A stretch of 64,000 nt of DNA from Candidatus Eiseniibacteriota bacterium (GTDB taxonomy: Bacteria; Eisenbacteria; RBG-16-71-46; CAVPCR01). Position numbers and translations under genes: made by a program. Positions 38,829 through 51,866 of this stretch are shown here, piece by piece (the stretch's first letter is position 1; each line of letters opens with the position of its first letter). The notes below the pieces were generated by a model. It saw only the letters and a program-made list of their open reading frames with translations, had not been told where the DNA came from and did not search any database. The stretch lies in NCBI GenBank assembly GCA_963823555.1, contig CAWGMA010000001.1, positions 416,001 to 480,000 of the forward strand, in the 5' to 3' direction.

Positions 38829-40429
38829 ATGGGCAAGCATCCATCAGGAAGGAAGGGGAGGGGGCGGGCGGATCGTCCAGATCATCGCTCCCGGCGGACG
38901 GACTCCGTGGCCGACAGGAAGGGGAAGGAGCCCGACTCCGGATCGGTGGCCGGAGGCGGACCGCCCGCGGGCCGCCGCGCTGCGGCGAAGCACGATCTCG
39001 AACGAATCGACGATTTCCGCTGGCGCATTCCTCGGCAGGGGGCGATGCGCGTCGAAGGGCTCGTCTTCGCTACCGAGAAGCTCGTGCGGTCGATGGCCGG
39101 CGACGAGGCGGTCTCGCAGGTGGCGAATGTGGCCACCCTCCCCGGCATCGTCGGGCGCTCGATCGGCATGCCCGACATCCACTGGGGCTACGGTTTCGCC
39201 ATCGGGGGTGTCGCCGCCTTCGATCCGGCGGCAGGGCGGTGTCGTCTCTCCCGGTGGGGTGGGCTTCGACATCAACTGCGGGGTCCGCCTCCTGCGCTCG
39301 AACGTACACCGGCGCGATGTGGAGCGCGTGATCGCTCCGCTCATGGACGAGATCCAGCGCTCGATCCCGGCCGGGGTCGGGCACGGTTATCGCGACAAGC
39401 TCGGTCCGCGCGAGGTGACCCAGGTGCTCACGCGCGGGGCCGAGTGGGCGGTCGAGCAGGGTCAGGGGCTCGCCGAGGATCTCGAACGCATCGAGGCCGG
39501 CGGCCGCCTCCCGGGCGCCGATCCGGGCGAGGTCTCCGAGCGGGCCATCGAGCGCGGGCGGGCTCAGCTCGGTACCGTCGGCTCGGGCAATCACTTCATC
39601 GAGGTCGGCTACGTGGCCGAGGTCTTCGACGACGATCTGGCCCGGACGTTCGGTCTCGAGCTCGATCAGATGACCATCTTCATTCACTCCGGGTCGCGCG
39701 GGCTCGGCTATCAGGTGTGCGACGATTTTCTCAAGATCATGTTGAGTGCCGCCCGCAAGTACGGGATCGAACTCCCGGATCGCCAGCTCGCGTGCGCGCC
39801 CCTCGGTTCCGCGGAGGCCCGGAGCTACATGGGGGCGATGAACGCCGCCGCCAACTACGCCTTTGCCAACCGCCAGATCATGGCCCATCGGGTGCGCGAA
39901 ACCGTGAGCCGGGTTCTGGGCCAGGGGCAGGCAGCGCTCGGGCTCCGTCTGGTCTACGACGTCGCGCACAACATCGCCAAGATCGAGGAGCACGAGGTGG
40001 AAGGCCGGGTGCGGAAGCTCTGCGTCCACAGGAAGGGAGCCACCCGCGCCTTTCCGCCGGGACACGCGGAGCTTCCTCCGGTGTATCGCTCTACGGGCCA
40101 GCCGGTGCTGATCCCGGGGGACATGGGGCGGTATTCCTACGTCCTGGCCGGGACCGAAGGGCGCATTTCGCGAGTCGTTCGGGTCCACCTGCCATGGCGC
40201 CGGCCGGCGGATGTCGCGAAACGCCGCTCGTCACGAGGCCCGCGGCCGCGAGCTCAAACGGGAGTTCCGCGAGCGGGGCATCGAGGTGCGAGGCGCGAGC
40301 TTCGCCACCATCGCGGAGGAGATCCCTGAAGCGTACAAGGATGTGGCGGATGTGGTGGACGCGGTCCACGGAGCGGGCATCGGGCGCAAGATCGCCCAGC
40401 TCCGGCCACTAGGAGTGCTGAAGGGCTAG
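38829..40429 (+). CDS. rtcB: RNA 2',3'-cyclic phosphate ligase RtcB, two apparent frameshifts (~39230, ~40170)
   Basis: [15 protein letters not shown] / [38 protein letters not shown] / [10 protein letters not shown]...PLGVLKG found in three successive frames. Confidence 0.9.
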
Positions 40430-45993: not shown

Positions 45994-46008
45994 TGGCACA
46001 GGGTTTGC
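45994..46008 (+). promoter_or_regulatory. Sigma-54 (-24/-12) promoter
   Basis: TGGCAC-AGGGT-TTGC with exact GG-N10-GC spacing. Confidence 0.7.
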
Positions 46009-46115
46009 CGTTCCCCCCTCCGGTTTGATTCCTGAGTCGCCGTGCTTTCTTTTCGCGGCGCGAAACTCGAGGGCAAGCGGTGCGGCTCTCCGTGATCAAG
46101 GAGGGGAAATTGACC

Positions 46116-46553
46116 ATGTCGATTCGAAACATGTCGGGCAGTTACTTGGGCCTCTTCATCCTGGTCATCGCCTTCGGCGGTCTGATCGCTGGTTGCGGTG
46201 AGGATCAGGTGACTGCGACCGACACGACGGCGCCCGCAGCCCCGATCGGTCTGCGCGCCATGGCCGGAAACACGACCGTCTATCTGGAGTGGGATGCCAA
46301 CTCCGAGACCGACCTCGCCGGCTACAATGTCTACTCCGCTGTGGATGGGGCAGCCCTCGAGCTGGTCGCTGTGGTGCCGGCGACGAGCACGGGCTACAAC
46401 GAGGTGCGCGAGCGTGGTCACGAGTACACCTACGAGATCACAGCCTTCGATCAGAGCACGAACGAGAGCTCGGCCTCCAATCAGGCGTCGATCTTGCACC
46501 AATCGCTGCCCTCGGGCGGAGTGCGCGACAACATAGGTACGATCGAGCGCTAG
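46116..46553 (+). CDS. Small lipoprotein with single Fn3-like domain
   Basis: Lipobox IAGC and DTTAPAAP.GL...LEWDAN.E.DLAGYNVY...YEITAFD..NES. Confidence 0.85.
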   Translation: MSIRNMSGSYLGLFILVIAFGGLIAGCGEDQVTATDTTAPAAPIGLRAMAGNTTVYLEWDANSETDLAGYNVYSAVDGAALELVAVVPATSTGYNEVRERGHEYTYEITAFDQSTNESSASNQASILHQSLPSGGVRDNIGTIER

Positions 46554-46600
46554 CTCGCCGATGATCGGCGGCTGAAGCCGCACCCTCGTGCCGCGGTGAT

Positions 46601-46644
46601 GGAGCTGGGGCCCTCTGCGTGAGCAGGGGTTCCAGCTCCCTTTC
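46601..46644 (+). terminator. Rho-independent terminator after Fn3 lipoprotein
   Basis: GGAGCTGGGGCCCTCTGC-GTGA-GCAGGGGTTCCAGCTCC then CTTT. Confidence 0.7.
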
Positions 46645-46730
46645 GCTTGGGTCGGGTTGGGCAGCCGCTTGCGTTGGACGCGGCGGATAGCGTGCTGGAG
46701 AATGCAGGCGAGATGTGGTAGGCTGTCTTC

Positions 46731-46932
46731 ATTCGGGATCCGTACGCCGCGTGCGAACCGACCGACCTCGTGCCCCAGCGACCACGCCGTCCTGCCGAGG
46801 GACGGCCATCTGTTCCTGAAGGAGCGAGCGGCCGGAACTCAGATGGCGCGACGGAATGGGTTCCGTCACATCGCGCTACCGGGCATAACAGGGGCTCCCT
46901 GGCCTTCCAGGCAGGAGCCCCTTGCGCTTTTT
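46731..46932 (+). ncRNA. Candidate ~200-nt structured RNA (unassigned)
   Basis: Extended -10 TGgTAGGCT (46716-46724), a multibranch fold with plus-strand G-U pairs, and a terminator hairpin 46890-46922 followed by TGCGCTTTTT. Confidence 0.45.
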
Positions 46933-46965
46933 GGGGGAGTTGGCGGGGCGAGTGCCGGGGGGGAG

Positions 46966-47541
46966 GAAAGGGGCCGCCGCCGCCAGCGGGGAGGGCGGGG
47001 CGGCCCCTCGGAGGGGGCACCCCGCCCCCATGAGATGGAGGAGGCGGGGTGCGCTGGCCGAGACGCGGTGGGCTCGGAACACCGCGCACTCGGCGAAGAA
47101 TGCAGGCAGGGAACACCGACCACGTCGCCCACCATCGCGGTCAACTGAGTCACTCAGTCACCTGGTGCTCCCTGCCCAACCCGACTAGTTCCTGGGGCGA
47201 GCCGTTGCCGCCGCCGGTGAAACGGTCGGCGGTACGGCAGCTTACTGCGACATCTCGCAATAAGCCGTGGTGCCGTCCCGGTCGCTCCCTCGGGCGGTGG
47301 GCGAAGAGGCACAAGTCCTCCCGCAGCTCGAATGACACTCTGGTCACCGAGACACCCGCGCCGGAGCGCGACACGCGAAACTAGGTTGTCAAGGCGTCTT
47401 TAACGAAGCGGAATAGGCCTTCTCGGTATCGTGCGCGGCTCTGGGATTAGAGCTCGTGGCCGTTCAGCTTTAGCAAGGTGGGATTCTAGGATCCTCCGGC
47501 ATGCGGTGGATGGGGCTGGGAGCCCCGCTTCCAACTTCGTC
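46966..47541 (-). ncRNA. Candidate ~575-nt multi-domain structured RNA (unassigned)
   Basis: Minus-strand promoter TTGTCA-18-TATAAA with extended TG. Many stems whose plus-strand A-C mismatches become G-U on the minus strand. No credible ORF. Confidence 0.55.
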
Positions 47542-47547
47542 GCTGTA

Positions 47548-47577
47548 TTTATAGCACGCTATCCGGAGCCCTGACAA
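47548..47577 (-). promoter_or_regulatory. Sigma70-type promoter pointing into the non-coding region
   Basis: Minus strand reads TTGTCA-GGGCTCCGGATAGCGTGC-TATAAA (TGn extended -10). Confidence 0.6.
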
Positions 47578-47790
47578 GAGGAAAAATCCGCTTCTGGCCC
47601 GGTTCCTGCCACCTCGAGCCGGCAGTCCGGTGCGAGTCCGAGTCCCTGTCGCCAGTTGGTGCCGTGGGCTCCAGGGCGAATCGCGCACGCTGGTGACGCG
47701 CTGGACACCGGCGTTGTCGGTGTTGGTCCAGGAGGCCTGCGGCAAGGAGAGCCCCGGGGGAAGGCCTTCCTCATCACTGGAGAGACCGCC

Positions 47791-49338
47791 CTGCTGGCCA
47801 CTCTGATATCGGCGACCCTCCATGGAATCGATGGCTGTCTCGTGCGTGTCGAGGTCGATGCCGCGGACGGGCTCCCGAATTACCAGGTCGTCGGTCTTCC
47901 GGATGCCGCCGTGCGCGAGAGCAGGGAACGCATCTCGTCGGCGATTCGCCATCTTGGCTTCACCTACCCCACGCGGCGCATCACCATCAACCTGGCGCCG
48001 GCAGGACTCAAGAAGGAAGGCGCTGCCTTCGATCTCCCGATCGCCATCGGCATCCTCCTCGCTTCAGGACAGATCCCGCCGTCAGGCGAGGGTCCTTTTG
48101 CCGCGGCGGGCGAGCTCTCGCTCGATGGGTCGGTGAAACCGATTCGCGGGGCGCTTTGCATGGGCGCGGCGGTGCGGGCCGCAGGCATCCGGCGCTTGCT
48201 CGTGCCCGTCGCGAACGCTGCCGAGGCAGCCCATGTCACGGACCTGTGCGTGCACGGCGTGGAGCGGCTCGATGAGGCCGCACGGCTCCTCGCCGCATTC
48301 GGCACCCCGGACGAACCCCACCCGGCGCGCCCGCGTTCGCCGGATCCAGTCTCTCCCGCGGAGCTGGACCTGGACGACGTGCTCGGCCAGGAGCATGCCA
48401 AGCGCGCGGTCGAAGTGGCTGCGGCCGGCGGTCACAATCTCCTCCTCGTCGGTCCGCCCGGCGGCGGCAAGACCATGCTCGCGCGCCGGCTACCCGGCAT
48501 CCTGCCCCCGCTCGGCCACGAGGAAGCGGTCGAGACCACGAAGATCGCCTCGGTTGCCGGCCTGCTCCCTGCCGGTGCGGGGCTGATGGCCCATCGCCCG
48601 TTTCGTGCTCCGCACCACACCATCTCGACAGCGGGGCTCGTCGGCGGCGGGCAGCCGCTGAAGCCTGGAGAGGTGAGCCTCGCTCATCACGGGGTGCTCT
48701 TCCTCGATGAGCTACCCGAGTTCCGCCGCACGGCTCTCGAGGTCCTGCGCCAGCCACTCGAAGAGGGTTGGGTCACGATCGTGCGGGTTGCGGGTGCGGT
48801 CACCTTCCCGGCCCGCTTCACCCTCATCGCAGCCTCCAACCCCTGCGCGTGCGGGTATCTCGGCGATCCCCGGGTGGCCTGCCGGTGTAGCGAGGCGGCG
48901 GTGGCGAGCTACATGGGAAGGCTCTCCGGGCCGCTTCTCGATCGCATCGATCTTCGCGTGGACGTGGGGCGGGTGGAGCCCGGGGAGTTCCTCGCCGCGC
49001 AGCCCCGGTCGGGCGTGTGGGGGACGGCGGCGGTGCGCCAGCGCGTGGCCGAGGCACGCCGGCGCGCGGCGGTACGTCTGCGTGCGGAGCCCGGTGTCTT
49101 CGCCAATGCGCAACTCGGTCCGGCGCTCGTGCGCCGGCATTGCGTGGTGCGCGGAGCGACGTTCCGGCTCATGAGCGCCGCGGCGGAGAAGCTCGCTCTC
49201 ACCGCGCGCTCGCTCGACCGCACGCTCAAGGTGGCGCGAACGATCGCGGATCTCGAAGGCGCTCGCGATATCGGGGAGGACCACCTCGCTGAGGCACTCC
49301 AGTATCGCGGACTGGAGCGGAGAGAGACCCATCGCTGA
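47791..49338 (+). CDS. comM: YifB/ComM family Mg-chelatase-like AAA+ ATPase (probable CTG start)
   Basis: VVGLPDAAVRESRER, INLAPA..KKEG..FDLPIA, GPPGGGKT, PFRAPHHT, FLDELPEF and SGPLLDRID motifs. Confidence 0.93.
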   Translation: MLATLISATLHGIDGCLVRVEVDAADGLPNYQVVGLPDAAVRESRERISSAIRHLGFTYPTRRITINLAPAGLKKEGAAFDLPIAIGILLASGQIPPSGEGPFAAAGELSLDGSVKPIRGALCMGAAVRAAGIRRLLVPVANAAEAAHVTDLCVHGVERLDEAARLLAAFGTPDEPHPARPRSPDPVSPAELDLDDVLGQEHAKRAVEVAAAGGHNLLLVGPPGGGKTMLARRLPGILPPLGHEEAVETTKIASVAGLLPAGAGLMAHRPFRAPHHTISTAGLVGGGQPLKPGEVSLAHHGVLFLDELPEFRRTALEVLRQPLEEGWVTIVRVAGAVTFPARFTLIAASNPCACGYLGDPRVACRCSEAAVASYMGRLSGPLLDRIDLRVDVGRVEPGEFLAAQPRSGVWGTAAVRQRVAEARRRAAVRLRAEPGVFANAQLGPALVRRHCVVRGATFRLMSAAAEKLALTARSLDRTLKVARTIADLEGARDIGEDHLAEALQYRGLERRETHR

Positions 49339-50350: not shown

Positions 50351-51866
50351 ATGTCGACCTCCGTTCCCGTGGTTGTGCCTGATCGAGTCGCGCCCACGCT
50401 TCCTCCCACCAATCTGACAGCGGAGACCCTGCACACGGAGTTCCTCCGCCAGGCCCGGGTCGCGAGCTGGAACACGTGGCGGCTCCTGGTCCTCATCCGG
50501 GAGATGGATGCCTGTGAGGGCTACGAGCACTTCGGGTGCACCACCCTCGCTCATTACCTCGAGCTCACGTGCGGCATCACCGGGGTCGCGGCCCGGGAGC
50601 GGATCCGGGTCGCGTTCGCCCTCGAGTCGTTGCCGGCGCTCGAGGCGGCCCTCAAGCGGGGCGAGCTCTCCTACTCCAAGGTGCGGGCGGTGACGCGGGT
50701 GGCGACGGCGGAGACCGAGGGGGAGTGGCTCCGTGCGGCGCGGGAGCGGACGGCGGAGGAGCTCGAGGTGATGGCGGCGCGGGCGACGCGGGGGGAGCCG
50801 GTGCGGAGGCGGCTCCTCACGAAGGCGGTCAACGCGCACACGACCCGGATGGTGGTGGATCTCCCGGCGGAGGAGATGATGGTGGTGATGCGGGCGCTGG
50901 AGCGGATCCGGCGTGAGGCTGGCGGGAGCCTCTCGGGGTCGGAGGCGCTCGTCTACCTGGCGGCGGACTCGCTCTCGGGGGAGGTGGGGGAGGTGAGGAC
51001 GGCGGAGCGCTACGAGGTCGTGGTGCACGTGGGCGAGGATGGTGGGAGCTGGGTCGAGACCGACGACGCGGCGGGGGAGGCGCCGTTACCGCGGGAGGTC
51101 GTCGAGCGGCTCCTCTGCGACTGCGCGCTTCGGGTGGTCAGGGAGGGGAAGGAGGGGCTCGCGGCGAGCCGTCGCACGCGCACGGTGCCCGAGGTGACGC
51201 GGCGCGCGGTGGCGCTCCGCGATGGGCATCGCTGCCGGGTCCCGGGCTGCCGGCGGCGGCTGTGGCTCGACCTCCATCATCTCGTGCCGGTGTGGGAGGG
51301 AGGGCGGCATGTGCGGTCGAACCTCGTCTACCTCTGCCGGTTCCACCATCAGCTGGTGCACGCGGGGCTCTTGCGCTGCGAGCGGCCAGGAGGGGGAACT
51401 CCGGTTCGTGGCGGTGCGCGGGGAGCGATGGGTGCTGGGAGAAGCCGGGGCGATGGGAGACGAGGAGTTCTGGGAGTGGCTCCGGGAGGCGGAGAGCGGG
51501 AGAGTGGCGCCGGAGGAGATGGAGACGATCGAGGCCGCCGCAGCCGCAGGCGGGGATCCGGAGGAGCTGCGCTCGACCTACTACCGCTCGCGCGACCGGC
51601 GGCCGTGGCAGGCGCACGAGCGGCGGGCGGCCTACCGTGTTTCCGCGGAGACTTCGGCCGGCCGCGCTCCAGCAGAAACACCTCAAGCATATGTTTCCGC
51701 GGAAACATCGCCGGCCCCGGAGCCGGAGTCCAGCTTCGACAGACCGGCGCGCACGTTTCATGCTACAATGTCCCTATCCCATTCCGCGTCTGTTGAAGGA
51801 GTCGACCTATGTTCTTGCACCGCACTGGACGCGCCCTGGCCGCACCTTCCGCAGCCGGCGGACTGA
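50351..51866 (+). CDS. DUF222-like + HNH endonuclease protein, apparent frameshift at ~51390
   Basis: ARERIRVA..L..LP.......GELSYSKVRAVTRVA, then RDG.RCRVPGC...LDLHH..W.EGG.H...NL..LC.FHH..VH. The C-terminal tail continues in the next frame. Confidence 0.8.
51639..51708. repeat. Three 27-nt-spaced GTTTCCGCGGAAAC-type palindromes
   Basis: GTTTCCGCGGAGAC (51639), degenerate GCTCCAGCAGAAAC (51666) and perfect ATGTTTCCGCGGAAACAT (51691-51708). Confidence 0.7.

Follow-up and report, generated by a model that had tools for sequence, protein, structure and literature searches.

To our knowledge, few classes of bacterial non-coding RNA exceed 500 nt, and the large RNA classes that have been solved serve basic processes or form unexpected assemblies. 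The raiA, OLE, GOLLD and ROOL families are all, we presume, represented in Rfam 15. The raiA motif RNA is ~200 nt long, is found in >2,500 species of Bacillota and Actinomycetota between comFC and raiA, and acts in trans (PMC10861870). CoRP, an RNA of 516 nt, comes from a host in which neither 6S nor Ms1 had been found (PMC11077062).

The RNA gene considered here is predicted at ~47542-46962 on the minus strand of the window (the whole 64,000-nt stretch of DNA that was analysed), and would specify an RNA of ~580 nt (46962..47542) whose ends are placed by a promoter and a terminal hairpin. On one side is a fibronectin-III-domain lipoprotein gene (46080..46553, plus strand), the convergent neighbour, which lies 3' of the tol-pal operon. 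On the other is the divergent neighbour comM, an intact gene for a YifB Mg-chelatase-like ATPase (47794..49338, plus strand; TIGR00368, E 1.6e-161). Gene annotation of the window agrees with the position upstream of comM and downstream of tol-pal given in a preliminary description of this DNA, which also found no credible ORF; four ORFs overlap the RNA region and a Pfam match was obtained for none of them. The comM start at 47794 is apparently CTG after a GGAG site in this genome (G000) and in G001, and GTG at that place in L011 and G003. Elsewhere in the window, an RtcB RNA-ligase gene (39127-40429, plus strand) is apparently split over two frames near 40200 by a frameshift or an assembly error, and the product of 50351-51796 (plus strand), an HNH-type protein unlinked to the RNA, has no Pfam family and matches IscB-like proteins only weakly (E 5e-5).

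The RNA shares features with each of the described systems, and differs from each. Like the raiA motif RNA, it appears to be stand-alone, with many invariant bases, putative pseudoknots, a variable region and a competence-gene neighbour (PMC10861870). However, at 500-640 nt it is larger, it is restricted to one order, it diverges from comM, and it has no Rfam match. With GOLLD, ROOL and OLE it shares the size class, and with GOLLD also a conserved 3' and a variable 5' region and, as candidates, loop-loop contacts (PMC12286853). Unlike all three, it shows no covariance-model match, no phage or tRNA-island context and far fewer conserved helices. Like CoRP, it is a lineage-restricted intergenic RNA with conserved synteny (PMC11077062), but 6S is present in the genome here, and the likeness to CoRP is one of size, range and synteny. 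With 6S it has in common a loop (loop A) complementary to a conserved 6S segment, but it is not itself a rod with a central bubble.

Direct searches agree with these differences. Against the 4227 families of Rfam, no match at gathering score was obtained over the window, and over the RNA region only chance matches appeared at E <=10; three homolog loci gave no match at E <=3. No Rfam family matches the region or these loci. Covariance models for raiA, OLE, GOLLD and ROOL did not match, and the setting does not suggest GOLLD or ROOL, as the window has no tRNA, the tol-pal/comM neighbourhood is chromosomal and there is no true phage or viral match. The view that this is not tmRNA, RNase P RNA or SRP RNA also holds. 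ARAGORN finds nothing in the window, the tmRNA of this genome being at C1:320554-320912; RNase P RNA (RF00010) and SRP RNA (RF00169) have no match here, and their true genes are at C1:891452-891825 (297 bits) and C1:2005671-2005770. Nor does the fold, which is branched, resemble the ~190-nt rod with central bubble of 6S RNA (RF00013), the true copy of which is at C1:1385085-1385273. Since normal tmRNA, RNase P, SRP and 6S RNAs are encoded elsewhere, the RNA does not stand in, as a diverged copy, for a housekeeping RNA that the genome lacks. A Y RNA is not indicated: Ro60/TROVE was not found in five genomes of the order and is present in 2 of 41 relatives searched. A riboswitch leader can be set aside, because no conserved gene that it could control follows on the same strand in six loci. 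No description of this RNA was found in the literature searched, though the supplementary alignments of motif screens could contain it.

Homologs are present at the same site in three of the four other genomes of the order and on two metagenome contigs. Searching 61 genomes at the DNA level recovered the element from G001 (same genus), G002 (same family) and G003 (same order); the contigs L011 and L012 were picked up with an exact 30-nt pattern. Together with G000 these make six loci, of which four (G000, G001, L011 and G003) are full length, at 504-635 nt. In all five homologs the RNA is antisense and directly follows the tol-pal operon or its lipoprotein gene; comM follows divergently wherever the contig reaches that far (G001, G003 and L011). 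The lipoprotein gene is beside the RNA in G001, G003 and L012, and is missing in G002 and L011. In G004, the fifth genome of the order (81% complete), the RNA was not found; this is not counted as a loss, because comM and pal were not found in that assembly either.

Outside the order the searches were negative. The phylum is probably Ca. Eisenbacteria, to which most of the Atlas cluster nearest to the neighbouring protein is assigned, on the strength of 2 named members among 61. Allowing <=3 mismatches, the 30-nt pattern matched four of the 206 genomes of this phylum, each of them a member of the order, while the 202 genomes from its other orders yielded no homolog (the unpublished genome G053 is counted only in the tallies of relatives and of the phylum). 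Model R1, run on 151 genomes, gave five weak matches outside the order (E 3e-4 to 0.09), none of them credible: three were rejected as lying in coding sequence, and the partial matches L146 and L148, seen as alignments, are without an intact core. In the same 151 genomes model R3 gave two weak matches, both coding, and model R2, which represents the 5' domain, found only G000, with G001 added in a search of five genomes. R1 did no better than E 0.52 at 34 comM-upstream loci and E 0.97 at 40 pal-downstream loci, all of other families. A gapped pattern applied to collection-wide contigs gave at least 120 loci, those listed being chance matches without the full 7-bp flanking stem, so that carriers in other phyla may exist. 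Viral contigs gave four and three matches, all at chance level, the three lying in a phage coding gene; phage records gave no match and plasmids only three short cobN matches. The RNA family thus appears, so far, to be confined to one order among the genomes searched. As a separate observation, L147 1501-1540 (G120) belongs to a probable beta-propeller protein gene with an early in-frame TGA.

The strand and the 5' end are indicated by a promoter. The minus-strand promoter claimed in the preliminary description has both its boxes in place, and both are conserved in the four full-length homologs: a -35 box TTGTCA (47572..47577), which is TTG(T/C)C(A/C) across these copies, and an extended -10 box TGnTATAAA (47548..47556). 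The spacer, 18 nt in this genome, varies in sequence among the four loci while the boxes are kept. TGnTATAA occurs 18 times in the 4.6-Mb genome but with a near-consensus -35 box only at the RNA locus, the pattern TTG[ACT]C[AC]-N14/15-TGnTATAA having this single site in 4.6 Mb; its uniqueness suggests strong transcription. A consensus promoter scan of the locus called no promoter, because the last base of the -10 box is A. These features suggest that a sigma-70-type promoter drives the RNA gene and would do so strongly. This one conserved promoter precedes all domains of the RNA. Neither a further conserved promoter nor a conserved terminator was seen inside the gene, and downstream no conserved minus-strand gene was seen, only convergent plus-strand genes following in the six loci. 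Transcription over the full length, its strand and both transcript ends are inferred.

The folding of the region points to the same strand. The minus strand has a folding z of -5.25, as against -3.52 for the plus strand, and none of 100 shuffles was equally stable on either. In the four full-length copies (579, 635, 590 and 504 nt; 15 shuffles each) the minus strand always folds better, with z of -5.8, -2.9, -5.1 and -7.1, versus -3.8, -1.2, -4.2 and -2.6 on the plus strand. An excess of minus-strand G-U wobbles, also proposed earlier, was recovered in the core: among pairs that are Watson-Crick in at least three of the six homologs, the deviating cells comprise 28 G-U and 7 A-C. The individual stems proposed from this one sequence could be located, namely those closing domain 1 (47541-47529 with 47413-47402) and domain 2 (47384-47377 with 47192-47185), the junction stem (47175-47164 with 47117-47106) and the three 3' hairpins. 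Stability is not spread evenly, however. Most of it resides in the 3' core (z -5.7 to -7.2), compared with -0.1 to -2.2 for the 5' domain and -1.6 to -2.5 for the middle domain. The proposal of a large structured minus-strand RNA thus stands, with the amendment that the conserved part is the 3' core of 205 nt and not the whole ornate fold.

The core (~205 nt; 203-217 nt) is 61-79% identical among copies and consists of a three-way junction, a hairpin bearing an invariant loop B, a variable hairpin and a terminal hairpin. Over the six sequences, 94.9% of 409 cells are paired, against 43-54% in slid controls. Compensatory changes were sought among the collected homologs, and 17 of the 69 core pairs were found to change on both sides, a level reached in 0 of 500 shuffles; as all six loci are kin, these are to be read as counts and the shuffle figure not as a probability. 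The three-way junction (47104..47177, minus strand) comprises a 14-bp basal helix, with three pairs changed on both sides and 94% of cells paired, a small hairpin (47158-47144) and an invariant hairpin. The loop B hairpin (47057..47094, minus strand; loop CCGAGCCC) has three stem pairs that change on both sides. In the next hairpin (47017..47052, minus strand), which varies in length and sequence, this applies to 6 of 12 pairs, and in the terminal GC hairpin (46962..47008, minus strand), which has a C-rich loop and a short pyrimidine tail, to 5 of 16. The terminal hairpin is probably the 3' end of the RNA. Its existence, with a short U run, had been proposed and was confirmed, but the terminator scan called no minus-strand terminator there, since the run is only 3 U in G000 (it is 5 U in G003). 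An HDV-like ribozyme reading of this hairpin was rejected because the helix order is wrong.

The invariant hairpin lies in a stretch of strict identity. A run of 32 nt (47118..47149, minus strand), which includes loop A (47135-47125), is identical in all six homologs, and in a variant from RNA run X3 30 nt of it are unchanged, the small hairpin being altered but still pairable. Because its sequence never varies, this hairpin draws no support from covariation. At four-fold sites of comM, identity to G000 is 52% in G001 and 43% in G003, so that neutral sites are saturated; the ComM proteins of the genomes at 43% are themselves only 53% identical, yet the run is unchanged. This indicates constraint beyond the demands of pairing alone. 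No genomic match to the run exceeds 15 nt, which is chance level.

Upstream of the core, conservation falls off. The 5' multibranch domain (47402..47541, minus strand) is 155-165 nt long in all four full-length copies, G003 included. Its identity is 62-72% among G000, G001 and L011, compared with ~48% after shuffling, and 51-55% to G003, where model R2 did not detect it; 8 of 26 pairs change on both sides (three sequences). Sequence conservation of this domain, as judged from these copies, is at the family level only. The middle domain (47185..47388, minus strand; 144-269 nt) lies behind a conserved AACC(U)AG linker and is variable, its identity being at shuffle level in six of six pairwise comparisons. 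Of domain 2 as drawn originally, the closing stem is present, but the inner stems are specific to the G000 genome. Taken together, the conserved promoter, position and orientation, the covarying helices and the lack of an Rfam match uphold the original view of a large non-coding RNA of no assignable class. We conclude that the family is real: a previously uncatalogued, large structured RNA with an unusually invariant core and a narrow range.

Pieces of the RNA are found in three RNA libraries from two studies, the soil libraries X2 and X3 (one study) and the sediment library X1. Mapped on 46000-48400, the contigs from X2 and X3 cover the core at 47041-47183 with 2-5 differences (0-5 over all core pieces) and continue for 60-111 nt into unlike middle-domain sequence. 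X1 has two identical pieces, 47272-47360 (89 nt, middle domain) and 46748-46883. All of these contigs have a depth of 2-4 and carry neither strand nor end information, the runs were selected using the RNA stretch itself, and the libraries may contain DNA; the flanking genes have short contigs of 31-45 nt, partly unlike and probably from other organisms. None of the X1-X3 contigs joins the 5' domain to the core. The metatranscriptome pieces are thus a weak indication that the RNA gene is expressed. The second X1 piece belongs to a convergent small-RNA candidate on the plus strand (46716..46932), with its own TGnTAnnnT box as -10 element (46716-46724), an RNA at ~46731-46884 and a terminator hairpin at 46891-46932. 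That contig is flanked by adapter at either end and stops at the conserved 3' stem. The ends and terminator of the candidate are conserved in five loci around a variable insert of ~60-155 nt, and an H-type pseudoknot is possible; it was not seen in G003, its folding z is unremarkable and it has no Rfam match.

Screening the four full-length copies for helices that all of them could form gave a single non-local candidate. Loop A (47134-47127) can pair over 8 bp with 47073-47066, that is, with loop B and the adjoining stem strand. The pairing is possible in 48 of 48 cells in the six homologs, and in all six the duplex is slightly more stable than the inner stem that it overlaps. Changes are seen at three positions, always one-sided and never on both sides, so the contact has no covariation support; it serves only as a lead, because the pattern also fits ordinary transition bias in that stem. 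The pairing could amount to a kiss of 4 bp or a pseudoknot of 8 bp, and it could act as a switch or join two molecules.

For the function of the RNA we favor, at what we regard as an even chance, a stand-alone, strongly transcribed, trans-acting non-coding RNA of a new family whose pseudoknotted invariant core binds a putative conserved partner. In this scheme a single transcript of 500-640 nt would be made from its own sigma-70-type promoter, and the RNA would work in trans through its shape rather than by coding or by long antisense pairing. In the three-way junction of the core, the invariant loop A would dock on the loop B hairpin, either as a 4-bp kiss or as an 8-bp pseudoknot that opens the inner stem of the hairpin, giving two states. 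The invariant surface so formed would bind a conserved partner in the cell, a protein or protein machine being the likeliest, and the 5' and middle domains would be a scaffold that tolerates turnover. RNA polymerase would be the first candidate partner, by analogy with Ms1 and CoRP only; as a normal 6S RNA is present, it is not obvious why a second polymerase-binding RNA should be required.

A variation, to which we give a minor but distinct chance, is a two-state switch of an undescribed kind, in which loop A would alternate between its internal partner and an outside one, the latter being a second copy of the RNA or the 6S segment that is mimicked internally. Were this true, a large RNA would self-assemble or would control an RNA-polymerase sponge by direct pairing. 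Assembly from RNA only, with loop A of one molecule pairing with loop B of another to form an oligomer or a cage like those of GOLLD and ROOL, and with the middle domain as cargo, is in accord with the retention of the A-B complement in all six homologs, but only one candidate contact exists among the helices common to the four full-length copies, and the missing tRNA, phage or viral homolog and Rfam match also speak against it; we think it unlikely. We are doubtful to a similar degree that the locus makes two or three smaller co-transcribed RNAs that are cut apart, in which case the 205-nt core would be the RNA proper and the 5' domain a distinct element of younger age. The domains do fold separately and evolve at very different rates, and the soil RNA contigs cover the core with only some unlike upstream sequence. 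However, those same contigs (X2 and X3) extend 60-111 nt from the core into the middle domain, one conserved promoter stands before all domains with no conserved internal promoter or terminator seen, and the length of the 5' domain, 155-165 nt, is kept even in G003.

The preferred reading, a partner-binding RNA acting in trans, has also to be weighed against a ribozyme or a ligand-binding RNA, in which the junction and loops would form a pocket and the A-B pairing a switch. In its favor are invariance far beyond what pairing needs and two nearly equal alternative helices in six of six homologs. Yet no Rfam ribozyme or riboswitch matches even at E <=10, a riboswitch would have no gene to control downstream, and we hold this reading to be quite improbable.

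Very improbable, in our estimate, is that the RNA is an antisense regulator of 6S RNA, with loop A pairing to the CGCCCACC segment beside the 6S central bubble. The pairing extends over 8 bp with that segment in the 6S of G002 and G003, the best loop A duplex beats >=95% of shuffles in three of four carriers, and the chance of finding the 8-mer per 190 nt of genome is 0.011. However, 11 of 20 genomes that lack the RNA reach this score too, which indicates a single 6S motif passed on by descent rather than two partners that co-evolve. In addition, the homologous site gives only 6 bp in G000 and G001, the predicted 6S fold has half of the site in paired positions, loop A already has an internal partner, and the pairing is one of 42 motif-by-RNA comparisons. 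Among those 42, pairings of the linker with 16S rRNA and of the core with tmRNA also scored well, but within multiple-testing chance, and were rejected.

We give still less credence to a role as a CsrA sponge or as a small RNA that acts on mRNAs by base pairing. Such roles would suit the presence of csrA in all five genomes of the order, a C-rich terminal loop, and the fact that the ORFs beside csrA in G000 (C1:192979-193128) included no recognised flagellar gene. For a sponge of the CsrB/Rsm type, however, GGA should be enriched, and its count is at or near chance in all four copies (9, 10, 6 and 10, against 9.1, 12.1, 10.3 and 8.7 expected); csrA occurs in 179 of 206 phylum genomes, most of which are without this RNA. 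Hfq was found in 0 of 5 genomes of the order, and genomic matches to the invariant run are no longer than the chance-level 15 nt. That there is no functional RNA here, but rather DNA-level signals, terminators or a small peptide from an AUG in loop A, would fit the good folding of the plus strand (z -3.5) and the AUG inside the invariant run, but is barely credible given the compensatory changes in four helices, the strand-specific wobble bias, the lack of a ribosome-binding site before the AUG, and a frame that shifts or stops at different places among homologs.

The narrow range, one order so far, limits the general reach of the finding. The source lineage is uncultured, and no RNA annotation was found for it. 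The invariant core is nevertheless compact (~130-205 nt), so that it can be made and probed in vitro without culture of the host. It offers a test of whether a long invariant run serves catalysis, protein binding or RNA-RNA switching. A core stretch that has stayed unchanged across distant relatives, as judged from the six copies, points to an important job for this RNA in the order that carries it.
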